Assembly (NCBI GenBank): GCA_031370645.1
Contig: JANMQV010000223.1
Coordinates: forward strand, 1 to 36,921
Direction: 5' to 3'
Length of the DNA: 36,921 nt
Source of the DNA: Candidatus Eiseniibacteriota bacterium
GTDB taxonomy: Bacteria; Eisenbacteria; RBG-16-71-46; SZUA-252
This document shows, piece after piece, positions 3,793 to 31,891 of this stretch. The notes under the pieces are model-generated. The model saw only the letters and a program-made list of their open reading frames with translations. It searched no databases and had not been told where the DNA came from. The position numbers and the translations under genes are program-made. Position 1 is the stretch's first letter, and each line of letters starts with the position of its first letter.

Positions 3793-4215
3793 ATGGCCGA
3801 AGCGACTTTCACCCTCCGCCTCGTGACGCCGCAGCGCCTCGTTCTCGAGGAACTGATTGTCGCGTTGCAGGCGCCGGGCTCCGAGGGGTATCTCGGAGTC
3901 CTGGCGCACCACGCTCCGCTCATCACGACGCTCCGCCCGGGAAGGCTCGAGGTTCGCGACGAGACGGGGAAGCGGTCGGTCTATGCGGTCGGCGGCGGGT
4001 TCCTTGAAGTGTCGAACAATCGGGCGACGGTGCTTGCCGACTCCGCGGAGTTGGTTACCGAGATCGATGCGGCTCGCGCGAAGGCTTCGCTTTCGCGGGC
4101 TGAAGCGCGGATCAAGGCTGACGCTGCGGCAGCTGCAGTTGATCGCGAGCGGGCGGCTCGGGCTCTTGAGCGCGCCAAGAATCGGCTGGCGCTCGCGATT
4201 TCTGAGCGGGAGTAA
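3793..4215 (+). CDS. atpC: F0F1 ATP synthase subunit epsilon
   Basis: LVTP...PGSEGYLGVLAHHAPLIT...GGFLEV motifs, C-terminal helical hairpin, AGGAG SD, position after atpD. Confidence 0.97.
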   Translation: MAEATFTLRLVTPQRLVLEELIVALQAPGSEGYLGVLAHHAPLITTLRPGRLEVRDETGKRSVYAVGGGFLEVSNNRATVLADSAELVTEIDAARAKASLSRAEARIKADAAAAAVDRERAARALERAKNRLALAISERE

Positions 4216-8846: not shown

Positions 8847-11422
8847 CGACGTCCGTCGAACTCACCTGGGCTCTGGCCGCGTCCGCCATCCTCCTCTTCG
8901 AGGAAGGGCGTCGCCGCCGCACGCTTAGCCGCGACCTCCGCGGGCTTCGCTCGTCGCTCGAGGCGGCCGTGCAGCGGAACGACCAGCTCTCGACCGCGGC
9001 CGAAGAGATGGGCCGACTCTACCGCGACCAGCTCCTCACCAGCCGGCAGCGCGCCGGCCGGCTCCGGAAAGTGCTCGAAATCGCGACCTCCATCAATTCG
9101 AACCTCTCCCTCGACAAGGTGCTCCACGAGATCGTGCACGCGGTGCGCGACGCCGTCGGGTATCGGATCGTCCTTCTCCGCGTGTTGAACGCGCGAAGCG
9201 GCGCCTACGAAGCGCGCTCCTTCGCCGGTCTCGACCGCGACGCGATCACGAAGCTCGAGGAGTACGACGTGAAGAAGGAGGAGTTCGAATCGTGGCTGCG
9301 CGACGAATTCAAGATCGGCCGCGCCTACTTCATCCCGCACGACCGGAAATTCTGGGGCGAAGTCGATCCGAACAGCTACACCCCCGACTTGGGCGAGCGT
9401 GCCGCGGGAGAGTGGCACCAGGAGGACGTGCTCTTCGTCCCGCTACGCGGCAAGGAGGGGGGGCAGATCGGATACCTCTCGGTGGACGATCCGTCCGACC
9501 GGAAGCGCCCCACGCGGGAAATCGTCGAGATGCTGGAGATCCTTGCGAGCCACGCCGTCGTGGCGCTCCAGAACGCGGCGCTCATGGAGCGGCTCCAGGA
9601 GAGCATGGGCCGCTTGGAAGAGGCGACGGAACGCGCCGAGGAGCTGAACGAGCTGAAGTCGAACTTCGTCTCCACGATCTCGCACGAGTTGCGAACGCCG
9701 CTCACGAGCATCCACGCCTACGTGGAGGCGCTCCAGCAGAACGTGGGGAGTACGAACCTCGGCATGCAGCGCGACTTCCTCCGTGTCATCGACGAGCAGA
9801 GCGAGAAGTTGAAGCGCCTGATCGACGCGATTCTCGACCTCACGCAGTTGGAGTCGGGGCGGTTCCGAATGGCCCGTGAGCCGTTCAACGTCGTGGAGGT
9901 CGTGGACGAGGTGGTTGGCATCCTGAAACCACTGGCCGAGCCGAAGCGCATCGCGTTGACCGCCGTGCGCGAAAACAGCGAAGTCGTCCTCGAGGCGGAC
10001 CGCACGCTCGTCCGCCGCGTCCTTCACAACCTCGGCATCAACGCGGTGACGTTTACGCCTGATGGAGGTGCGGTGACGTTCCGCGTCCGAAGCGAGGGTC
10101 GAAACGTTCAGATCATCGTGGAGGACACGGGGATCGGCATCGCACCGGGCGACATTCAACGGGTGTTCGACAATTTCTACCAGATCGACAGCGGTCCGTC
10201 GCGCGAGTACCCGGGCGTGGGGCTCGGGCTTTCGATCGCGAAGAGCATCGTGGAGTGGCACGGCGGCGACATCACCGCCGACAGCGAGCCGGGGCATGGC
10301 GCCCGTTTCACGGTGACGCTACCGGCCACGCCGAGCGACGCGAGCGTCATTACCCACGCCACGTGGTCTCCGGCCCGCTCGGTCTCCGATCACCTCACGC
10401 GCCTCACGGTGGAGATGGTGGCTGAGGTCATGAACGCCGGCATCACCTCCCTCATGCTGGTGGACGGCGAGAAGGAAGAGCTCTACATCAAGGCGGCGCG
10501 CGGCCTCCGGGAAGAGGTCGTCTGCGGAACGCGGATCAAGATGGGCGACTCGATCGCCGGATGGGTGGCGAAGCACGGCCAGCCGCTCCTCGTCACGAAC
10601 ATCGAGGACGATCCGCGCTTCGGCCGCCGGAATCACCACCAGTACGAGACGAAGTCGCTTCTCTCGGTCCCGATGAAGGTCGGCGACCGTGTCATCGGCG
10701 TCATCAACATCAACAACAAGATCTCCTGCACGCCCTTCACCGAGGACGACCAGTCGCTCCTGACCTCGCTGGCGGAGCGCGTGGCGCGCGCTTGGGAGCA
10801 CGCCGAGGCGCACGAGGCGACCGCCGACCAGGCCGAGCAGGCGACGAAGGCCATGTCGGCGATCATCGACCACTCGCGTCGGAGCCGCCTCCGCCTCACG
10901 GCGGGGACGATGGCCGCCCGGGCGACCGCCGTGGGCCGCCGCCTCGGCCTGAACGAGGAAGAGACGCGGATCCTGGCTTACGCCGCGACGATCCACGACG
11001 TCGGCATGGCGCACGTTTCGCCCGGAATCCTCCACGAGCCGGGTCAACTCGACCCCGAAACGTGGGCTCAGGTCGCCCAACATCCAATTCGTGGCGTGGA
11101 ATTGATGAAACCGATCGAGTTCCAGTCGCAAGTGTCCGAAATCATTCTGGCACACCACGAGCGGATGGACGGCCGGGGCTACCCGCGAGGCCTCTCCGGA
11201 GACGAGATTCCGGTCGCGTCCCGGATCATCGCGGTGGTGGATGCCTACGAATCGATGACGCTCGGGCGCCCCTATCGGCTCCCGATGACGCACGACGAAG
11301 CGATTGCGGAACTGAACCGCTGCGCGGGAACGCAATTCGATCGACAGGTGGTCGAAGTGTTCGTGCAAATAGTTGCGACAGTTGAGGATACAAGGCTCAT
11401 TCGGGCTCCAGAAGCGGCGTGA
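8843..11422 (+). CDS. GAF-HisKA-HATPase-GAF-HD-GYP hybrid sensor kinase (copy 2), short N-terminal hydrophobic segment
   Basis: SHELRTPL, NLGINA, DTGIGI, GVGLGL; HDVG, HHERMDGRGYP, RPYR, GTQFD. GTGA overlap and GGAGG SD. Confidence 0.92.
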   Translation: MTTSVELTWALAASAILLFEEGRRRRTLSRDLRGLRSSLEAAVQRNDQLSTAAEEMGRLYRDQLLTSRQRAGRLRKVLEIATSINSNLSLDKVLHEIVHAVRDAVGYRIVLLRVLNARSGAYEARSFAGLDRDAITKLEEYDVKKEEFESWLRDEFKIGRAYFIPHDRKFWGEVDPNSYTPDLGERAAGEWHQEDVLFVPLRGKEGGQIGYLSVDDPSDRKRPTREIVEMLEILASHAVVALQNAALMERLQESMGRLEEATERAEELNELKSNFVSTISHELRTPLTSIHAYVEALQQNVGSTNLGMQRDFLRVIDEQSEKLKRLIDAILDLTQLESGRFRMAREPFNVVEVVDEVVGILKPLAEPKRIALTAVRENSEVVLEADRTLVRRVLHNLGINAVTFTPDGGAVTFRVRSEGRNVQIIVEDTGIGIAPGDIQRVFDNFYQIDSGPSREYPGVGLGLSIAKSIVEWHGGDITADSEPGHGARFTVTLPATPSDASVITHATWSPARSVSDHLTRLTVEMVAEVMNAGITSLMLVDGEKEELYIKAARGLREEVVCGTRIKMGDSIAGWVAKHGQPLLVTNIEDDPRFGRRNHHQYETKSLLSVPMKVGDRVIGVININNKISCTPFTEDDQSLLTSLAERVARAWEHAEAHEATADQAEQATKAMSAIIDHSRRSRLRLTAGTMAARATAVGRRLGLNEEETRILAYAATIHDVGMAHVSPGILHEPGQLDPETWAQVAQHPIRGVELMKPIEFQSQVSEIILAHHERMDGRGYPRGLSGDEIPVASRIIAVVDAYESMTLGRPYRLPMTHDEAIAELNRCAGTQFDRQVVEVFVQIVATVEDTRLIRAPEAA

Positions 11423-16164: not shown

Positions 16165-17562
<1,398 letters not shown>

Positions 17563-18743: not shown

Positions 18744-19832
18744 GTGCGCGACGCGCTCGAGAAGGCGAAGACCCGCTTCGCCGACCTGACCCGCCAGTTG
18801 GAGGATCCGAACCTCCATTCGAATCCGGCCGAGATGCGCCGCATTTCGAAGGAGCGGAGCGACCTCGTCGACCTCGTTACGGCCACTCGTCGCTATGACG
18901 ACGTGCTTCGAGGAATCGAGGACGACCACGCCCTCCTGAAGTCCGAGAAGGATCCGGAGCTCCTCGCGATGGCGAAGACGGAGTTGGAGGAGTTGGAGGC
19001 CGAGCGCGCGAAACTGGAGATCGAGCTCCCGCGCCTTCTCCTGCCGCCCGATCCGCTCGACCAGCGAAACGTCATTCTCGAAATTCGCGCGGGGGTAGGC
19101 GGCGACGAGGCGGGGCTATTCACGGGCGAAATCCAGCGGATGTACACGAAGTACGCCGAGCGCCACCGCTGGCGCGTCGAATTGATGGAAATCAGCGCGA
19201 CGGGCGGCATGGGGGGCGTGAAGGAAGCGATCCTCATGATCCACGGTGAAGGCGCCTACAGCCGCTTCAAGTACGAGAGCGGCGTTCATCGCGTGCAGCG
19301 CGTCCCCGACACCGAGGCGAGCGGGCGCATTCACACCTCCGCCGTGACCGTGGCGGTGCTTCCCGAAGCGGAGGAAGTCGACGTGGAGATCAAGCAGAGC
19401 GATCTTCTGATCGATGTCTTTCGCGCCGGCGGCCCGGGAGGGCAGAGCGTCAATACGGCGGACTCCGCTGTGCGAATCCGCCATTTGCCGACCGGCGTCG
19501 TCGTCCAATGCCAGGACGAGCGCTCGCAGTTGAAGAACAAGAACAAGGCGATGAAGGTGCTCCGCGCCAGGCTCCTCGATCTTCAGCGCCAGGAGCAGGA
19601 GCGGAAACTCGCCGCCTTCCGGAAATCGCAGGTTTCGACCGGCGACCGGAGCGCCAAGATCCGCACTTACAATTTTCCGCAGGGCCGCGTCACCGATCAC
19701 CGGATCGGGCTCACCCTCTACCGGCTTCAAGAAGTGATGGAAGGCGATCTCGACGAGGTCGTGGACGCCCTCTTCAACGCGGAGCAGGCCGAGCGGCTTG
19801 CCGCGAGCGGGGTCGCGGGAGCCACCGCATGA
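18744..19832 (+). CDS. prfA: Peptide chain release factor 1
   Basis: GGQ motif, RVPDTE (PxT RF1 anticodon-mimic), [23 protein letters not shown]. Confidence 0.98.
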
Positions 19833-20758
19833 CCGCGCTCGTGGACGGAACGCGAGCGGCGGTCTTGGCCGCGCTTCGCGACCGTCTGGAGCGCGCCGGC
19901 ATCGAAAGCGCCGCCTCCGAAGCCGAGACGCTGCTTCTCCACGCGCTCGGAATTTCCAGAACTGAGTTTTGGTGCGAACCCGCCGCGGCACTCACCGCGG
20001 CCAAACTGGCGACGCTCGAATCGCTCGCCGCGCGGCGCGAAAGGCGCGAGCCGCTCCAGCAGTTGATCGGCACGGTCGGATTTCACGACGTCACCCTGGA
20101 AATGGCTCCGGGGGTATTCATCCCTCGGCCGGAGACGGAGACGCTCGTCGCATCCGTCCTCGAGGCGCTCGGTCCCGCCGCCACAGCAGGGGGACGCCTC
20201 CTCGACCTCGGCTCGGGCAGCGGTGCGGTCTCGGTGGCGCTCCTTGCTGCCCTGCCGCGCTGGACCGGCGTCGCGATCGACCGCTCGCCGGCCGCGCTCG
20301 CCCTTACGGCGAGAAACGCCGTCCGAAACGGACTTGGATCCCGATTCCAGGCGCTGGCAGGCGATTTTCTGGCTCCGGCCACCGGGGGTTCCGCCGCCGC
20401 GACGCCCACCCCGGCCCCTGCCTGGATCTCCACTTCCCCCTCGTACAATCTCGTCGTCTCGAATCCACCCTACATTCCCACCGGGGCCCTGGCCGGGCTG
20501 ATGCCCGAGGTCCGGGACCACGACCCCCGGGCGGCCCTCGACGGGGGGCCGGACGGCCTCGATGCCTACCGCGCCATCGCGCGGCTCCTCCCCACTCTTC
20601 TTCGCCCGGAAGGCCTTCTGGCGCTGGAGATAGGGGATGATCAGGCCGATGCTATCTTGGGTATCATGGGGCCGGGCCTCGAGGCGCCGCGTGTGCGGCA
20701 CGATCTCGCGGGTCGGCCACGAGTTGTTCTTGGAACGTGGAGAGGCGGGGTGGCATGA
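19829..20758 (+). CDS. prmC: Release factor glutamine methyltransferase PrmC/HemK
   Basis: [32 protein letters not shown] overlap with the prfA stop. Confidence 0.96.
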
Positions 20759-22083: not shown

Positions 22084-23988
22084 ATGCGCCCCGTCGTCAT
22101 CGGAACCGCGGGGCACATCGATCACGGCAAGACCGCACTTGTTCGCCGCCTCACCGGCATCGACACCGACCGGCTGAAGGAGGAGCGCGAGCGCGGCATC
22201 TCCATCGACCTCGGTTTCGCGCACCTGGCGCTCCCCTCGGGGCGCCGGGTGGCGATCGTCGACGTGCCGGGTCACGAACGCTTCGTGAAGAACATGCTCG
22301 CGGGCGCCACCGGCATCGACATCGTGCTCCTCGTCGTCGCCGCCGACGAGGGTGTCATGCCGCAGACGCGCGAGCACCTCGCCATCGTCGAACTGCTCGA
22401 CGTTCGTCGCGGCGTCGTCGCCCTCACCAAGTCGGATCTCGTGGCGCCCGAACTGCTCGACGCGGCTCGCGACGAAGTAGCGTCGCTCCTCGCGCCGGGT
22501 CCTCTCGGCGGCGCGCCGATCGTCCCCGTATCGTCCGTCACGGGCGACGGCATCCCCGCACTACTGGCCGCGCTCGAATCGGCCGTGGCGGCACTCCCCG
22601 AACGCGGCGCCGACGGTCCCGCGCGCCTTCCGGTCGATCGCGTCTTCTCCATCGAAGGAATCGGCACCGTCGTGACCGGCACGCTCTGGAGCGGCGCGAT
22701 CCATCCGGGCGACACGCTCGAACTGCTTCCGAATCGCAGGGAGGTACGCGTTCGTCAAGTGGAGGTGCACGACCAGCCGGTGCCGCAGGTGATCGCGGGG
22801 CAGCGAAGTGCCGTGGCCATTCATGGCGTGAATCGCCAGGACGTCTCGCGCGGCGAGTGGCTCGTGACGCCGGGGCGTTTTCTTGCGACTACAGTCGTGG
22901 ACGTGCGGCTTCGCCTTCTCGGCACGGCCGGACGCACCTTCGAGGACCGAACGCGGGTGCGCGTCCACCTGGGCGCGAGCGAGACCCTGGCGCGCGTCGT
23001 GCTGGTGGAAGGGGCGCCGCTCGAGCCGGGGGAGATCGCGCTCGCGCAACTTCGCCTGGAGGAGCCGGTGGTGGCGATCCCCGGCGACCGCCTCGTCCTT
23101 CGCGCCTATTCGCCGGCGGTGACGATCGCGGGAGCGGTGGTGCTCGACGCGCACGCGGAGAAGCGCGCACGCCTGAGCGACGCCGCGCGGCGGCGACTCG
23201 AGACGTTCGAGAAGGGGACGCTCGCCGAGCGGATCATGGTCCTCGCCGCGGAGGCGGAGGGAGCCGGCGTGAAGGCGGCGGATGCGGCGCTTCGCTTCGC
23301 CGTCTCGCCCGAAGCCGCGACGGAAGCGGCGCGCGCCGCGAAAGGGCTTCGCGCACTCCGCGACGGCCGCTACCTGACCGAAGCCGCGTGGAAGGGAACC
23401 GTGGAGCGGATCTCGGCGGCGGTGGCCCGATACGCGGAGACGCACAAACTAAGAGAGGGAATCGGGAAGGGAGAGTTGAAGAGTCTCCTGGCGCGCGACA
23501 TCGATGGGAGCATCTTCGACGAAGCGCTCGATTCGCTGACCGCCGCGAAATCCCTAGCGGTCCGAGGCGACCGGGTCGCCCTGCCCGACGCCGGACCGGT
23601 CTTGACCCCCGACCAGGCGCGCGCCGTCGCCGAGATGGAGCGACGACTCGGGGCGGGGGGCTACTCGGTCCCCGAGGTGCCCGAACTTCTGAAGGGGGTC
23701 GCCCCGGCCCTCAAGCCGCAGGAGCTGCTGCGGTACCTCCTCGAGTCGGGGAGGGTGGTGAAGATCACGGCCGACTTGATCTACCCGACGGAACGCTGGT
23801 CGGAGCTGGAAGCCAAGGTGCGGCAATACTTTTCAGGAAATCCAGATCTCTCCATGGCGGCCTTCAAGGAACTCTTCCAGGTCTCCCGGAAGTACTCGAT
23901 TCCGATCCTCGAACACCTCGACCGGACGGGCCTGACCCGTCGGCAGGGGGACGTCCGCGTGGCCGGGCCGCGCCTCCGGCAGCCGTAG
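22084..23988 (+). CDS. selB: Selenocysteine-specific translation elongation factor SelB
   Basis: [35 protein letters not shown]-terminal winged-helix [21 protein letters not shown]. Confidence 0.96.
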
Positions 23989-24140: not shown

Positions 24141-24470
24141 ATGGGCCCTCGAATTCGTTCCCTCCGACTTGCGCTTTCGGCCGCCATGCTCATCGTGCTG
24201 ACCGCGCTTCCCGGCGTTTGGCTTTCCCAGACCCCTGGAAACGCGTTCGGTCCCGCCACGGCATGGGCAGGCGGAACGCCCGATGAGACGCTGAGCCCTC
24301 CGCCGATTCCGCCGAAGAAGGCGAGTGCCCTCGGCAGGCGGTTGGACTTCGGTACCACGACGCCTGGCAGGGCGATCGGCGATCGGATCGAGCGGAAGAC
24401 GCCGATCTCGACGATCGATCGATTCCGGGCGCTCTGGACGATCGTGCGCGCGACCACCCTCAGGATGTAG
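24141..24470 (+). CDS. Small exported protein, candidate signalling propeptide (109 aa)
   Basis: AGAAGG SD-like; basic N-terminus plus hydrophobic core (LALSAAMLIVLTALPGVWL); AWA signal-peptidase-like site before GGTPDETL; Pro-rich linker; amphipathic C-terminal helix. Lies between a promoter and the bEBP gene. Confidence 0.7.
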   Translation: MGPRIRSLRLALSAAMLIVLTALPGVWLSQTPGNAFGPATAWAGGTPDETLSPPPIPPKKASALGRRLDFGTTTPGRAIGDRIERKTPISTIDRFRALWTIVRATTLRM

Positions 24471-24543
24471 AGCCGAAAACCGAGACCACGGGGACGGGAC
24501 GCCGGCGCGAGCCAATGGGACCGCCGGCCTCCAAGGACGAACG

Positions 24544-27015
24544 GTGGACAAGACAACGGCAGCGTTGATCCGGGAACGCGAGGAGGCGGTCACGACCGCC
24601 CGCCTGGCACAGGATGGCGCTCGGCAACTTCAATCGCTCGAAGATCTCGCGGAGATATTTCTGCGCGCCGATTCGTACCTTCCGGCGCTCCAGAATCTCG
24701 AAGAGTGCATTCAGTCGGCCGAGCGGCTCGGTCTCGACGGCGCCCGCATCGCGGCGCTCGAGATCAAGGTGGCCCAGGTCCTCATCGAGAAGGGCGACGC
24801 CGCCGCGGCGCTCCGCCACCTGGCCCGCGCTCGCGCTCGCTCCATCGCCGAACCGAACCCCGAACTCATGGCGCGCGTCTATCTGCAGAACGCCCGCGCG
24901 CTCATCGAACTCTCGCAGTACGAGGAGGCGCTCTCCACCTGCGAGCGCGCTTTCGCCATCTTCAAGGAACGAAATCTCCTCGCCCCGCTCGCCCACACGT
25001 ACAACTGTTTCGGCCGAATCTACTATCGTCTCGGCGAGTTGGACCGCGCGAAGGAGTACTACGAAGCCGCGCTTCATCTCTTCCGCTGGGATCTGAACGA
25101 CGAGGAGGGCGTCATCCGCGCCCACAACAACCTCGGCGTTCTCTATCGTCATCTCTCCGACTGGCGTCAGTCGGTATGGCATCTCCTCCGCTCCATGGAA
25201 TTGAGTCAACGCCTCGGTAACTTCGCTCACCTCGCCGTATCGAACGCCAACCTCGGCAACGTCCACCTGAAAGCCGGCACCTGGGATGAGGCGCGGGAGC
25301 ACTACGATCGCGCGCTGATCGCCTACGTGCAGATCGGCCGCGACGCGGGCGTGGCCCGTATGCGGACCGGCCTCGCGACGATCGCCACCTATCGCCACGA
25401 TTTCGCGGCGGCGGAGGTGCACCTGGCGGCGGCGCACCAGATCACGGCGCGTCTCGGCAACTCGCGCGAAGCGGCGCTCGTTCTCTTCGGGCAGGCTGAA
25501 CTGCAGCACGAGCGCGGCCAGTTGGAAGCGGCGCTTCGCCTCTACGACGAATCGCTGGACGTGGCGCGCGAGATCGCGCCCGAAGGCGACATGGTCGGCG
25601 AACTCCAGCGGAAGCGGGCGGAAGTGCTGGCACTTCGCGGCGATCTTCCGTCGGCCTTGAAGGCCGCGGAGGACGCGCTCCAGCGCGCGAAGCGGCTCGG
25701 CGACCAGTTGGAAGAGGGAGCCGCGCGCCGTGTGCTCGCCGTCCTTCACGCCCAGGACGGGCGGCTGGTGGAGGCCCATACCGAGTCGCGCGAGGCGATC
25801 CGCATTCTCGAGTCGATCCACGAGCGGATGGAGCTGGCTCGCGCCTATCTCGACCTGGCGCGCCGGATGCCCCGCGAGGGAGATCCCGAGCGCCTCCGTG
25901 AAGCGCAGAATCTCGCCTTCAAGGCGATGTACCTCTTCGAGCAACTCGGCATGGAAGACTCCATGCGCGCGGCCGAGACCGCGCTCCGCGAGCTGAACGC
26001 GCCGGCGTGGCTCACGTCGCCGCGCGGCGGACGTCCTTCGCCGCCGCCGATCGCGGCCCAGGCGCAGGAAGTCGCGCGGGCGCACGGTGTCGTGACGGAG
26101 AATCAGCGCACGCTCGACGTGGTGCGTAAGGCGTCCGAACTCCTCGCGACCCCGGCCCGCTGCCTCATCCAGGGCGAGACGGGCGTCGGCAAGAATCTCC
26201 TCGCCTACATGTTCCGTCAGTACGAGATCGAGCGCGGCCACCCGTTCGTGGAAGTGAATTGCACGAGCCTCCCGGGCGACCTGGTCGAGAGCGAACTATT
26301 CGGCTACGTGCGGGGGGCCTTCACGGGAGCCGCCATCTCGAAGCGCGGGATCTTCGAGGAAGCCGACGGCGGGACGATCTTCCTGAACGAAATCGGCGAA
26401 CTGACCGAGCGCACTCAGGTGAAACTGCTCCAAGTATTGGACGACGGTACCTATCGCCGCTTGGGCGAGGTGCGGGCCCGTCGCTTGAACGTCCGCATCA
26501 TCTCCGCCACGAACAAGGATCTCGATACCGCCGTGAAGGCGGGCTGGTTCCGCGCCGACCTCTACTACCGGCTCGGACAGGTCGTGCTCTCGCTTCCGCC
26601 GCTTCGCGAGCGCCGCGAGGACATCCCGCTTCTCATTCGCGGCTTCCTGGATGAACTGGCGGTGCGCGAGGGGCGGACAGTCGTGCTGGCGGAAGACGCG
26701 ATGGAGTACTTGGCGTCGCTGCCGTGGCTCGGCAACATTCGCGAGCTGAAACACAAGATCGAGAGCATCTTCCTCTGCGCGGGGAAGCAGGAGGTGGTCG
26801 ATCGCGCCATGCTCCTGAAGCTTCTCCATCCGGGCGGTTCGGCGCCGGCGTCGGAAGCGCCCTCCACGCGGGGACTCCGCCGGAAGGTCGACATGCTGAA
26901 GCGCGAGGAGGTCCTCGCGGCCCTTTCCCGGAACGGCGGCAACCGCAGCCGCGCCGCACTCGAGTTAGGCATCACCCGCCGGCATCTCATCCGGCTCCTC
27001 AAGCAGATCTACTAG
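24544..27015 (+). CDS. TPR-domain sigma54-dependent transcriptional activator (bEBP; TPR-AAA+-Fis HTH)
   Basis: About 480 aa of TPR repeats (e.g. AHTYNCFGRIY, AHNNLGVLY, NANLGNVH); GETGVGK, ESELFG...GAFTGA, FLNEI, FRADLYYRL, WLGNIREL; HTH NRSRAALELGI. GTG 24544 after AAGGA chosen as start. Confidence 0.93.
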   Translation: MDKTTAALIREREEAVTTARLAQDGARQLQSLEDLAEIFLRADSYLPALQNLEECIQSAERLGLDGARIAALEIKVAQVLIEKGDAAAALRHLARARARSIAEPNPELMARVYLQNARALIELSQYEEALSTCERAFAIFKERNLLAPLAHTYNCFGRIYYRLGELDRAKEYYEAALHLFRWDLNDEEGVIRAHNNLGVLYRHLSDWRQSVWHLLRSMELSQRLGNFAHLAVSNANLGNVHLKAGTWDEAREHYDRALIAYVQIGRDAGVARMRTGLATIATYRHDFAAAEVHLAAAHQITARLGNSREAALVLFGQAELQHERGQLEAALRLYDESLDVAREIAPEGDMVGELQRKRAEVLALRGDLPSALKAAEDALQRAKRLGDQLEEGAARRVLAVLHAQDGRLVEAHTESREAIRILESIHERMELARAYLDLARRMPREGDPERLREAQNLAFKAMYLFEQLGMEDSMRAAETALRELNAPAWLTSPRGGRPSPPPIAAQAQEVARAHGVVTENQRTLDVVRKASELLATPARCLIQGETGVGKNLLAYMFRQYEIERGHPFVEVNCTSLPGDLVESELFGYVRGAFTGAAISKRGIFEEADGGTIFLNEIGELTERTQVKLLQVLDDGTYRRLGEVRARRLNVRIISATNKDLDTAVKAGWFRADLYYRLGQVVLSLPPLRERREDIPLLIRGFLDELAVREGRTVVLAEDAMEYLASLPWLGNIRELKHKIESIFLCAGKQEVVDRAMLLKLLHPGGSAPASEAPSTRGLRRKVDMLKREEVLAALSRNGGNRSRAALELGITRRHLIRLLKQIY

Positions 27016-27068
27016 TCCCGAAGCCCCGCTCCACCGCATCGACTCCCGTGCCCCAAACCGAGCCGTAG

Positions 27069-27186
27069 GTGTGACATGAAGGTCGCGTTTCCCCCTATGG
27101 GGTGGGACATATTGGCAACCCGCTCTGCGCTAATGGCTTGGCGTTATGTGGGGGTGTCGAAGTGTGACATTCGTGTCCAGTGTGAC
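27069..27186 (+). promoter_or_regulatory. Candidate bEBP enhancer (UAS) repeats
   Basis: GTG(T/G)GAC at 27069, 27102, 27162 and 27180; the first three continue AT. Two form partial palindromes (GTGAC-atgaag-GTCGC; GACA-ttcg-TGTC). Confidence 0.55.
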
Positions 27187-27298
27187 CCCGCAAGGCGACG
27201 TCCCAGCCTCTGAACCGACGTCTGCGGCGCCCACGCAACCCTTTCTACTGCATAGTCTTGAATCTCATTTTCACGATCTGGTCGATTCAAGCCATGGG

Positions 27299-27314
27299 CG
27301 GCACGTCGGATGCA
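27299..27314 (+). promoter_or_regulatory. sigma54 (-24/-12) promoter
   Basis: CGGCACGTCGGATGCA: GG-N10-GC spacing with GGCACG and TGCA consensus blocks, directly downstream of a bEBP gene. Confidence 0.72.
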
Positions 27315-27324
27315 ATGGAACAGG

Positions 27325-27473
27325 GTCAACGCAAGGCTTTGAAGGGCCGCGGAGGGTGGGGAGCTCTCAGAAGACGCCAAATGTAGAGCTAACCCTCTTC
27401 CCTTCGTCCTCTGGACTAAAGGCTCCTGTATTGACTCTCACTGGGTGCCTCATCTCCCGCGGCCTTAGTTTTT
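27325..27473 (+). ncRNA. Putative sigma54-dependent structured small RNA (~150 nt)
   Basis: Predicted +1 near 27325; 27343-27361 pairs with 27448-27466 (18 of 19 pairs, 4 G-U); internal hairpins; ends in TTTTT; no credible ORF downstream of the promoter. Confidence 0.6.
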
Positions 27474-27516
27474 ACAACACAGGATGGGTCCCCCCCACCC
27501 GCGTTTCGCACCGCAT

Positions 27517-29034
27517 CTAGCTCGACACCTCGCGATCGTCGGCCGTGCCTGTTTCGCCGCCCTTCAGCAGCATGGGGCGGACTAGAAGCTCGCGTTCGCG
27601 TGTCGCCAGGGCCTGCCCCGGCTTACCGCGTCTCGGCTTCGAAACGAACTTTCGCTCGGTATAGATAACTGGGACCCGCGACAGCTTCCGTGCCTTGCTG
27701 AAGTAGGCGGCCGTGGCGGCCGCCTCCTCAAGCGTCCGAGGTTTGGGGACAGCGGTCCGCGTCGGCCGGCGCAGGATCACGTGGGAACCCGGTACCCCCA
27801 CGACGTGGAACCAATAGTCGTGGGGTTGGCTTAGGCGGTGGGTGATCAGGTCGTTCTCGGTGTTGTTCCGACCGACCCAGAGTGTCCACCCATCGCTCGT
27901 GAAAAGCGTCCTTGGCCTGATTGAACGGTGCGCCCCTGGAGATCGGTGCTCTGGACGTTCCGCGCGGGGCGGCGTGGAGGATTGCCGTGAAGAACGGTTC
28001 CCCTGTCGCTCGCCCCGTGCACTTAAATCGAGAGCTGCTGACTTGAAGAACGCGTCGAGAGACGCGAGCGCTTCCTTCGGCGGCAAGTCATAGACGGCGC
28101 GGCGGACGTCGGCGCAAGCCGCGAGATTCTTCCGAGTATCGGCGAGACGACGCATCACCAGCGAGAGACCCCGCTCGCCCTTCTTAGCCCTCTGGAAGAG
28201 CCGCGCCGCGTTGTCCTGAGGGGAAAGGGCCGGGTCCAGCACGAGACGGACCCGGGCACCCGGCGAGTCCGCGTACGGATCGGGGAGTTCGGCGTGGCTC
28301 GCCCCCCTCTGAATGTCTTTGTAGTACGTCAGCAACAGTTCCCCCCGCCGACGGTCGAGGAGACGATCCTCGGCCGCCTTTTTGTCTCCCTCCTGCGCCT
28401 TCTCGCGCCGCGTGAGGATCCGCTCCGACTCCTTGAGGTGCCGGTCGAGCGTGTGGCGGAAGTCGTCCTGGAACGCCTTCTCGATGCGGCCGCGGAACGA
28501 CTCGAGCGCCGCGTCGTCACCCCGCGCGAGGAGCACGATCGCCGCGGGGCGTGCAAGGCTCGACGTGGAAGGCGGCGCTGTGGTCGCGCCATCCGCCGCG
28601 GCCTCTTCCTTCCGATCCAGCGCCCAGATCACGCGGTTCTCCTCCGCCAGGCGAAGCGAGAATGCGATGCGCGGCCCCTCCGCGGAGAGCGACAGGCGAT
28701 GCGTCTCCACGCCGGCTTCGGCGCCGTCTCCCGGCGCCGCGAGCGAGAAGAGAACCTCTCCCGCCATTCCCTCCGTTGCCTCCGCGCGAAGGAGATGCAA
28801 TCCGCGAAGCGGCCTCTCCAGCCCTCCGTAGGGAGTGCCGCGAGGGTCGGGAGAGATCGGCATCTTGTCGGCGAGCGCCAGCGTCGCGCGCTTCGCCTCG
28901 AGGAAGATCCAGATGAAGGCGCGCGGCGTTCCGTCGAACGCGAGCGCGATGGCGCGCGGCCCGAGCGGCACGACGCCGGTGAGGCGCCGGCCTTCCAGGG
29001 AATCGAAGCCGTGTGCCATCGGGCCGCCGCTCAC
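27517..29034 (-). CDS. NFACT/Rqc2-family (RqcH/FbpA-like) protein with divergent N-terminal domain
   Basis: GELL...LDPALSPQDNAARLFQRAKK middle region; NFACT-R motifs VGRNNTENDLIT, WFHV..VPGSHV, AAYFSKAR, VSKPRRGKPG. Start GTG 29034 (coupled) or ATG 29019. Confidence 0.88.
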   Translation of the reverse strand: MSGGPMAHGFDSLEGRRLTGVVPLGPRAIALAFDGTPRAFIWIFLEAKRATLALADKMPISPDPRGTPYGGLERPLRGLHLLRAEATEGMAGEVLFSLAAPGDGAEAGVETHRLSLSAEGPRIAFSLRLAEENRVIWALDRKEEAAADGATTAPPSTSSLARPAAIVLLARGDDAALESFRGRIEKAFQDDFRHTLDRHLKESERILTRREKAQEGDKKAAEDRLLDRRRGELLLTYYKDIQRGASHAELPDPYADSPGARVRLVLDPALSPQDNAARLFQRAKKGERGLSLVMRRLADTRKNLAACADVRRAVYDLPPKEALASLDAFFKSAALDLSARGERQGNRSSRQSSTPPRAERPEHRSPGAHRSIRPRTLFTSDGWTLWVGRNNTENDLITHRLSQPHDYWFHVVGVPGSHVILRRPTRTAVPKPRTLEEAAATAAYFSKARKLSRVPVIYTERKFVSKPRRGKPGQALATRERELLVRPMLLKGGETGTADDREVSS

Positions 29035-31000: not shown

Positions 31001-31891
31001 ATGCTTCGAAGCATGACGGGCTATGGCCGCGGCGAGGCCGTGGCCGAGGGACTCAGACTCACCGCCGAGTTGCGTTCGGTGAATCATCGCTTCTGCGAAC
31101 TCTCCGCGCGCCTGCCGCGCTCGCTCGCCGCCTACGAAGCCGAGGCGCGGAAGATCGTTCAGGAGAAGATGACGCGAGGGAAACTCTCGCTCGTCGTGGC
31201 CTGGGGGAACGACGGCGCCGAAACCGAGGAGCCGGGCGGCACGCTCACGCTCGACCGGAAGACCGCCGACCGCTACCTCGAACTCTTGAATCAAGCGAAG
31301 ACGGCCTACGCGCTGAAGGGCGATCTCGACGTGAACGCCTTCGCCGCGCTTTCAAACGTCTTCGTCTGGCAGGAAACGGCACGCGATCCCGAGTTCTACC
31401 TGCAACTTCTCCGCACCGTCGTGGAACAGGCGACCGCTGACCTCCTTCGCATGAAGGAGCAGGAGGGGGCGCACTTGAAGAAGGATTTCGAGGAGCGCCT
31501 GGAAGGGCTTCGCTCCCGCGTGGCCACCGTGCGCGAGCGGGCGCCGCAGCGCGTGCGCGAGACATTCGAGAAGACGCGCGAGCGGGTGAACACGCTGCTC
31601 GAGGGGCACACGTTCCCCGAGGAGCGGGTGGTGCAGGAGATCGCGCTCCTCTCCGATCGGCTCGACTGCACCGAGGAGTGCGTGCGGCTGGAGGCGCACT
31701 GCGCGCAGTTCCGCCGCTACCTCGACGAGGAGTCCACACCGGGGCGGAAGCTCAACTTCCTCCTCCAGGAGATGAATCGTGAGATCAACACGATCGGCTC
31801 CAAGTCGAACGATGTCGCTATCGTGGAGCAGGTGGTCGAGGTGAAAGAGGAACTTGAGCGAATCCGGGAACAAGTCCAAAACATCGAGTGA
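31001..31891 (+). CDS. yicC: YicC/YloC family endoribonuclease
   Basis: SMTGYGR, ELRSVNHRF, GRKLNFLLQEMNREINTIGSK, ERIREQVQNIE. Confidence 0.96.
   Translation: MLRSMTGYGRGEAVAEGLRLTAELRSVNHRFCELSARLPRSLAAYEAEARKIVQEKMTRGKLSLVVAWGNDGAETEEPGGTLTLDRKTADRYLELLNQAKTAYALKGDLDVNAFAALSNVFVWQETARDPEFYLQLLRTVVEQATADLLRMKEQEGAHLKKDFEERLEGLRSRVATVRERAPQRVRETFEKTRERVNTLLEGHTFPEERVVQEIALLSDRLDCTEECVRLEAHCAQFRRYLDEESTPGRKLNFLLQEMNREINTIGSKSNDVAIVEQVVEVKEELERIREQVQNIE

Follow-up and report, generated by a model that had tools for sequence, protein, structure and literature searches.

Does a short stretch of an uncultured soil bacterium's genome, lying between the gene of a sigma-54 activator and a convergent NFACT/RqcH-like gene, encode an RNA of its own, and what would switch that RNA on? 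The stretch occupies positions 27325–27473 of the window, by which we mean the whole 36,921 nt analyzed here (Candidatus Eiseniibacteriota bacterium, assembly GCA_031370645.1, contig JANMQV010000223.1, positions 1–36,921); all coordinates are window positions. A first-pass annotation had proposed a structured RNA of about 150 nt with exposed CU-rich segments resembling an anti-Shine–Dalgarno (anti-SD) sequence, acting in trans on ribosome-binding sites or as a protein sponge. We propose, with a probability of roughly 0.6, that the plus strand from 27325 to ~27470–27500 carries a gene in its own right, encoding a small non-coding RNA that is specific to its lineage and under the control of sigma-54 and the adjacent bacterial enhancer-binding protein (bEBP). 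The support is in silico and comprises a conserved core, a promoter, an enhancer array, synteny with the bEBP gene, the presence of rpoN and the occurrence of the core in RNA libraries.

A conserved core with a long closing helix

The core is framed by a closing helix, P1, that pairs at 18 of 19 positions, with a single A·C mismatch (27353/27456, read from the sequence) and four G–U pairs (27344/27465, 27354/27455, 27356/27453 and 27359/27450). It encloses two hairpins, a pyrimidine-rich linker and a CTCCT motif, and is followed by TTTTT (Table 1). All of these elements are in the sequence where the first-pass annotation had placed them, and the closing helix and the two hairpins also form in the RNAfold prediction. 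P1 is present in the minimum-energy fold of all seven sequences folded, and the inner helices vary among predictions. Taken alone, the 149-nt stretch is unremarkable (−54.6 kcal/mol, z −1.65, with 10 of 200 shuffles folding equally well), whereas the 128-nt core reaches z −2.5 (4/200 shuffles) and six homologs range from z −1.4 to −4.6 (all by RNAfold). Folding energy alone is weak evidence; what lifts the stretch above chance is its conservation.

Table 1. Positions of the features discussed in the text
Feature	Position	Strand	Basis	Details
TPR-sensor sigma-54 activator (bEBP) gene	24325–27015	+	Pfam	896 aa; start codon uncertain
Enhancer-like array, candidate bEBP sites	27069–27186	+		GTGTGACAT at 27069, GTGGGACAT at 27102, GTGTGACAT at 27162, then GTGTCCA and AGTGTGAC
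Putative sigma-54 −24/−12 promoter	27300–27313	+	sequence, conservation	GGCACGTCGGATGC; GG 27300–27301, GC 27312–27313
Short non-conserved leader	27325–27340	+	alignment
Conserved RNA core	27341–27466	+	conservation, folding	~125 nt
P1 closing helix	27343–27361 with 27448–27466	+	sequence, RNAfold	AGGGCCGCGGAGGGTGGGG with CCTCATCTCCCGCGGCCTT
P2 hairpin	27362–27367 with 27385–27390	+	sequence, RNAfold	AGCTCT/AGAGCT
Pyrimidine-rich linker	27391–27405	+	sequence	AACCCTCTTCCCTTC
P3 hairpin	27406–27409 with 27413–27416	+	sequence, RNAfold	GTCC/GGAC
P4	~27421–27428 with 27442–27449	+	predicted fold
CTCCT motif	27423–27427	+	sequence
TTTTT after P1	27469–27473	+	sequence	no family feature
Invariant mini-hairpin	27485–27497	either	conservation	T-GGG-TCCCC-CCC-A; GGGTCCCCCCC at 27486–27496
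NFACT/RqcH-like gene, convergent neighbor	27517–29034	−	Pfam	NFACT_N 1.3e-15, NFACT-R_1 3.7e-13
Sibling module, same genome	C74:6678–10349			bEBP L152:179–3469, promoter L152:3682, RNA L152:3711–3850

In a blastn search with a 191-nt query, the core (query 52–175, corresponding to 27341–27464) was recovered from 34 of 36 genomes of the bacterial family at E ≤ 5e-7 and 71–88% identity. A covariance model, R1, built from 30 loci (alignment A1) matches 38 of the 40 other family genomes as well as the window's own at E ≤ 3e-24, with one forward-strand match in each, to which genome G020 adds a weak reverse-strand match at the same place; the two genomes without a match are 91% and 78% complete. 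None of 110 genomes representing 17 other families in the same class gave an R1 match. Pattern scans extended the sample: an exact-pattern scan of a genome collection returned 29 loci (22 titled Candidatus Eisenbacteria and 7 under other submitter labels), a metagenome scan returned 53 further loci, and R1 matches all 100 loci fetched, at 102–152 bits. Mean column identity lies between 0.85 and 0.98 in every segment except the linker, and loops and junctions are near-invariant across four genera (GGGGA(G), 0.97; AUAAA, 0.98); the GUCC/GGAC helix is likewise invariant in sequence and does not covary. Because single-base insertions and deletions fall within the conserved blocks of the alignment, we regard the core as non-coding.

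An Infernal search against Rfam, suggested in the first-pass annotation, matched no known family. Rfam 15 gave no match in the window at the gathering score, nothing relevant over 26950–27600 at E ≤ 10 and, for five homologous loci from other genera, no match at E ≤ 0.5, and ARAGORN found no tRNA or tmRNA. A match to MEG8_1 (27033–27118, minus strand) was rejected as chance, its 19.2 bits standing against a gathering score of 70. The SRP RNA (65.8 bits) and 6S RNA (88.8 bits) of the host genome sit on other contigs. The earlier description of a non-coding, structured-looking plus-strand element outside the known families is borne out by the empty Rfam searches, by conservation and by contigs from RNA libraries that cover the core. 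As judged by sequence comparison, the RNA is a new family, restricted to one family of uncultured soil bacteria (Candidatus Eisenbacteria).

The wobble pairs of P1 had been read as favoring the plus strand, and the alignments agree. Over 29 consensus pairs in 70 distinct sequences (alignment A2), 179 cells are G–U and 14 are A–C, a comparison biased by the derivation of the consensus on the plus strand, and the alifold consensus is better on that strand in both alignments (−32.8 versus −26.0 kcal/mol in A1 and −23.1 versus −19.1 in A2). The predicted fold is plausible, and covariation gives no proof of it.

A candidate sigma-54 promoter, enhancer array and activator

Upstream of the core, GGCACGTCGGATGC has the GG-N10-GC spacing of a sigma-54 promoter and a −24 element near consensus. 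The pattern GGCA[CT][GA]-N5-TGC precedes the core in 30/30 loci and in 65/65 distinct loci with at least 130 nt of upstream sequence; of 85 loci entered in this survey of promoter and enhancer, 6 in which the anchor regular expression did not locate the start of the core were set aside, and the others comprised 68 distinct loci. From the usual spacing, transcription is predicted to start at ~27325 ± 2, near the left boundary drawn in the first pass. The leader between the end of the TGC and the core measures 29–30 nt in the window's clade and 56–99 nt in the remaining family, and the promoter is kept although this surrounding leader cannot be aligned.

Three GTGACAT-type sites lie approximately −229, −196 and −136 nt from the promoter. 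Of 62 distinct loci, 35 have all three sites at those positions and 25 have two; one locus has a single site and another has none. Each GTGACAT site resembles the imperfect palindrome GTGAC-N6-GTCNC. A strict GTGACAT pair occurs once in the window's genome; the looser GTGACA-N85-88-GTGACA was matched 31 times across 41 family genomes, compared to once for a reversed control, and the 31 matches comprise 27 just upstream of the RNA, 2 on contigs that lack the RNA and 2 elsewhere. The array appears dedicated to this one promoter. Together, the conserved promoter and array, both overlooked in the first-pass annotation, would tie the RNA to the bEBP encoded upstream. A DNA-bending site, of the kind bound by integration host factor, is expected between an enhancer and a sigma-54 promoter. 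We also observed an inverted repeat, CTTGAATC ... GATTCAAG (27257–27291; 8-nt arms, 19 nt apart), in an A+T-richer patch between enhancer and promoter, which has no apparent conservation in the alignment.

The product of the upstream gene combines Sigma54_activat (1.3e-56), TPR_12 (1.7e-39) and HTH_8 (2.4e-07) domains with TPR/MalT-like repeats and an AAA lid. The gene precedes the RNA on the same strand in 29/30 loci; 26 of the 30 have its 3′ end 300–500 nt ahead of the RNA and 3 have it 1.7–2.3 kb ahead, a contig end truncating the remaining locus. The 3 more distant cases are genomes of genus g3 (G018, G027 and G030), where an insertion lies between the bEBP gene and the RNA, with enhancer and promoter remaining beside the RNA. 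Within the family, the bEBP is 75–98% identical, compared to 51–97% for NFACT. The genome also carries rpoN, encoding sigma-54 (contig C106), and 23 of its Sigma54_activat matches exceed the cut-off; 19 of these are full-length bEBP domains. Among the best bEBP homologs in five genomes of other families (31–37% identical), only one of five full-length matches precedes a sigma-54 promoter.

In the mechanism that we propose, we infer where transcription starts, that it depends on this bEBP, where the RNA ends and that the RNA is active at all. The TPR-sensor bEBP, activated by some signal, would bind the three GTGACAT sites and remodel sigma-54 RNA polymerase at GGCACG-N5-TGC, with transcription starting near 27325. 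The variable leader may be dispensable and perhaps trimmed, and the near-invariant, P1-closed core of ~125 nt would be the mature functional RNA, acting in trans as a regulator.

RNA sequencing data bear on whether the core is transcribed. Twenty-two RNA-labelled runs from 18 studies contain small shares (0.07–0.18) of sampled words from 26800–27800, and contigs, which show neither strand nor true ends, come from four runs. Run X1 yielded a 251-nt contig on 27344–27593 and run X6 one of 461 nt that begins at 27350 and runs past 27800; the two come from close relatives (90–99% alike) and from two studies. X6 also yielded, from a more distant relative, a 388-nt contig that extends from 40 nt ahead of the core into the NFACT gene. 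Run X10 covers only the NFACT gene, and run X5 covers the NFACT gene and the 3′ end of the bEBP gene (26803–26837). Positions 26838–27343 have no contig cover in the four runs, and uncovered parts count as no evidence. The core is covered by contigs from the RNA libraries of two studies, and we read the locus as a conserved small RNA gene that appears to be expressed and to be controlled by a sigma-54/bEBP switch. Contig ends coincide at 27342–27350 in the two studies and, with the 40-nt extension in the distant relative, fit the leader lengths of the clades, at most a weak hint at transcript ends.

On the 3′ side, the invariant mini-hairpin lies 17–59 nt after P1 and, in the window, 20 nt beyond the NFACT stop codon. 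The 11-mer GGGTCCCCCCC occurs once in the genome, and the motif is found in 66/67 loci, or 71/71 when one variant is included. Its flanking pair N/N′ is canonical in 41/65 loci (T–A in 10, C–G in 24 and A–T in 7), a count reached by 0 of 2,000 partner shuffles among relatives that are not independent.

The wider neighborhood, as genomic context of the RNA, abounds in genes of translation and RNA turnover: rho (16165–17562), prfA (18744–19832), prmC (19508–20758) and selB (22084–23988) on one side, and the NFACT/RqcH-like gene and a yicC-like endoribonuclease gene (31001–31891) on the other, where a TPR protein gene and coaBC also lie.

Counter-evidence and rival readings

Several results weigh against an independent, sigma-54-driven RNA gene. 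Across the genome, the loose promoter pattern shows no enrichment (39 matches versus 51–68 in five shuffles), so that the case for the promoter rests on conservation and context and not on a single match. Only 2 of the 29 consensus pairs change on both sides, which 107 of 500 shuffles equal; 97.7% of cells pair, but 70 of 500 shuffles reach that share, and the contrast with slid partners (32–52%) comes from a control biased toward any fold predicted from the same sequences. Scanning every pair of columns gave only clade-wise correlated columns and no additional helix. Because the sequence hardly varies, the covariation among homologs to which the first-pass annotation had appealed is not significant, and the alternative pairing of the linker with the 5′ segment, offered there as a possible switch, has no comparative support. 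Among 71 distinct loci, 13, including that of the window, have a T run of at least 4 in the 14 nt that follow P1; the TTTTT may serve as a terminator in this genome, but a terminator-like T run is not conserved, and the stable 3′ hairpin and U run of a rho-independent terminator are not a trait of the family. In RNA contigs, the core, the mini-hairpin motif and the 3′ part of NFACT are bridged at like depth (7.2 and 7.6). The CU-rich linker is the least conserved segment, with a mean column identity of 0.71. No Hfq was found in the host genome (95% complete), and exact 11-mer complements gave 525 genome matches, mostly GC-rich chance, among which no target was identified.

As to how a sigma-54-driven RNA would act, our preferred effector step is tentative and falls short of even odds: the C/U-rich parts and the C-loop mini-hairpin may pair or kiss with G-rich partners. 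As for the earlier anti-SD proposal, the linker is pyrimidine-rich (median share 0.63, range 0.42–0.88), and CCUC, CUCC or UCCU occurs in 45 of 70 distinct sequences, but CCUCC occurs in the linker of only 12 of 70, and the low conservation of this segment weakens the case for an anti-SD seed. The seeds of base-pairing small RNAs are usually their best conserved part. RNAduplex comparison with 2,771 crude start regions produced sprawling multi-loop duplexes without meaning, and we claim no target.

Given the invariant loops and junctions, protein sequestration is almost as likely as pairing, albeit on balance unlikely: a sigma-54-driven RNA would bind or titrate a protein, as GlmY, CrcZ and RsmZ do, or scaffold a small ribonucleoprotein, without pairing to mRNA. 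The near-invariance of loops and junctions in four genera, and of helices such as GUCC/GGAC that do not covary, fits such a role, as does a csrA gene in the genome (contig C131:99439–99594) together with 2–6 GGA triplets per core (4 in 44 of 70). Most of these triplets, however, are in predicted stems, and the loop copy CAGGAGA is replaced by CAGAAGA in the window and several relatives, unlike in CsrB/RsmZ sponges; no partner was identified, and the failure to find Hfq counts against this role as well. A CsrA sponge of the CsrB/RsmZ type, which requires many GGA motifs in loops, was considered and rejected on that count. The presence of csrA in a genome in which Hfq was not found also bears on which RNA chaperones this lineage uses.

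It is improbable that the conserved block is mainly the 3′ untranslated region or terminator of the convergent NFACT/RqcH-like mRNA on the minus strand, as the first-pass annotation had considered, or a cis-only antisense or colliding transcript that lowers NFACT expression. RNA contigs do join the core, the mini-hairpin motif and the NFACT 3′ end unbroken at equal depth, the NFACT gene is convergent in 29/30 loci (the other is cut by a contig end), and the mini-hairpin pairs slightly better on the minus strand, where eight C·A flanks become U·G and 49/65 flanking pairs are canonical versus 41/65. The contig of run X5, however, stops at the NFACT stop codon. On the minus strand, the 179 G–U cells would turn into mismatches and the consensus fold is worse. 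A conserved sigma-54 promoter and enhancer array are directed into the core, and an antisense role alone would not call for a core of 125 nt that is near-invariant. NFACT homologs outside the family, moreover, have neither the promoter nor the C-rich mini-hairpin motif within 900 nt in any of the five genomes compared (5/5).

A divergent copy of a known RNA (SRP, 6S, tmRNA, tRNA-like, riboswitch or ribozyme) overlooked by the models is very improbable, since its very high conservation, single copy per genome and proximity to translation genes (rho, prfA, prmC, selB and NFACT, plus yicC) are set against Rfam searches that are empty even at E ≤ 10 or 0.5, an empty ARAGORN search, SRP and 6S RNAs located elsewhere, confinement to one family (0/110 other genomes of the class) and, for a riboswitch, the lack of a same-strand gene downstream.

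A sibling module and comparison with known circuits

A genome search for the promoter found the identical 14-mer GGCACGTCGGATGC on contig C74, where it belongs to a second module of the same design. The sibling activator is a 1,096-aa TPR-AAA+-HTH_8 paralog, 37% identical to the window's bEBP over AAA+/HTH and 26% over TPR. Its gene is followed by a terminator, by TGGCACGTCGGATGC and then by a conserved non-coding RNA of ~140 nt that differs in sequence from the window's RNA, is present in 37/40 family genomes and has no Rfam match. This sibling RNA starts with an invariant hairpin, GGAGGGGGGGACCTCC (30/30 sequences), and ends in a conserved terminator, GGGGCTCA plus a T run (GGGGCUCA plus a U run).

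Two further observations concern the sibling module. Right after its RNA, and before a protein gene starting near C74:10637, lies a near-consensus sigma-54 promoter, TGGCACGCGCGTTGCG (L152:4060–4140, C74:~10566–10640), so the sibling activator may serve an operon as well as an RNA. Outside the family, in genome G038 (L183:~4035–4190), the best homolog of the window's bEBP (37% identical) precedes GGCACGGCCTATGCT, which lies 180 nt beyond the match, and then an RNA-like stretch of ~135 nt, GGGGGGACC...AGCCCGC, with a T-run terminator. This stretch resembles the sibling RNA and not the window's RNA, which suggests that the sibling RNA is more widespread.

The sibling segment GGGGGGGACC is the exact complement of GGTCCCCCCC, which lies beside the window's RNA and occurs 5 times in the genome, counting both strands together. 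In 23/23 genome pairs (24 were attempted, with extraction by regular expression), no exact complementarity between the RNAs is longer than this match of 9–13 nt, in a test that favors the mini-hairpin motif because extraction stopped there; per genome, 0–28 of 200 mononucleotide shuffles reach it. A long shot, in our estimate, is a two-RNA circuit in which two paralogous TPR-sensor sigma-54 activators each switch on one of the RNAs and the C-loop (GGG-UCCCC-CCC) kisses or pairs with the sibling G-loop (GGAGG-GGGGGA-CCUCC), one RNA sponging the other. If true, such a circuit would integrate two environmental signals at the RNA level.

To our knowledge, nothing is known of gene regulation in Candidatus Eisenbacteria, an uncultured phylum of soil and sediment, and the literature that we searched held no paper combining 'Eisenbacteria' and 'sigma-54'. 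The locus is a new RNA family within a known type of circuit, represented by Pxr/PxrR, CrcZ/CbrB and Qrr/LuxO. It shares with bEBP-linked, sigma-54-dependent small RNAs the GG/GC promoter spacing, distal candidate activator sites, and rpoN together with an adjacent activator gene.

The closest parallel in layout is Pxr of Myxococcus xanthus, whose activator is PxrR (Nla19) and whose circuit includes PxrK. PMC5684412 describes the small RNA gene as lying immediately downstream of the activator gene, with ~260 bp holding an enhancer-binding region and a predicted sigma-54 promoter; as here, a same-strand small RNA gene follows an NtrC-type sigma-54 activator. Pxr is likewise a multi-stem-loop RNA conserved in one lineage, and its long and short forms suggest processing (PMC5684412). 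Unlike Pxr, the window's RNA matched no Rfam family and has no sequence or model similarity to it, and its core is longer (~125 nt, with four helices) and far more invariant. The activator differs from PxrR in carrying a TPR/MalT-like sensor and not a receiver domain, and we saw no partner kinase.

In Pseudomonas, crcZ is located after cbrB, and CrcZ titrates Hfq/Crc via repeated A-rich motifs. The window's RNA, in contrast, has no such repeats, in a genome in which Hfq was not found. PMC6296734 describes CbrB as an activator of both crcZ and crcY that works through three subsites, each a set distance away from the sigma-54 promoter, an arrangement like the present one in its sigma-54-dependent small RNA, its bEBP and its three spaced sites. 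The same study counts 61 CbrB targets by chromatin immunoprecipitation sequencing (PMC6296734), whereas the window's enhancer array is essentially unique to the locus.

The activators of Qrr and GlmY are two-component response regulators, unlike the TPR-sensor activator of the window. In enterobacteria, GlrR is a sigma-54 activator serving the adjacent small RNA GlmY, which acts by protein mimicry; the Qrr RNAs are Hfq-dependent and carry a conserved seed. In Vibrio, LuxO is reported to switch on, largely or solely, adjacent Qrr small RNAs (PMC11407668, PMC4878744), and the window's bEBP may be comparably dedicated. A further difference from these circuits is that the present module exists in two paralogous copies. 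The near-invariance of the 125-nt core across four genera points to a protein or RNA partner. The locus thus adds a TPR-sensor activator outside the two-component systems to the regulators dedicated to small RNAs, in modules that occur as paralogous pairs, and it offers a complete putative circuit of sensor-activator, enhancer, promoter and RNA that is small enough to be rebuilt in a laboratory host.

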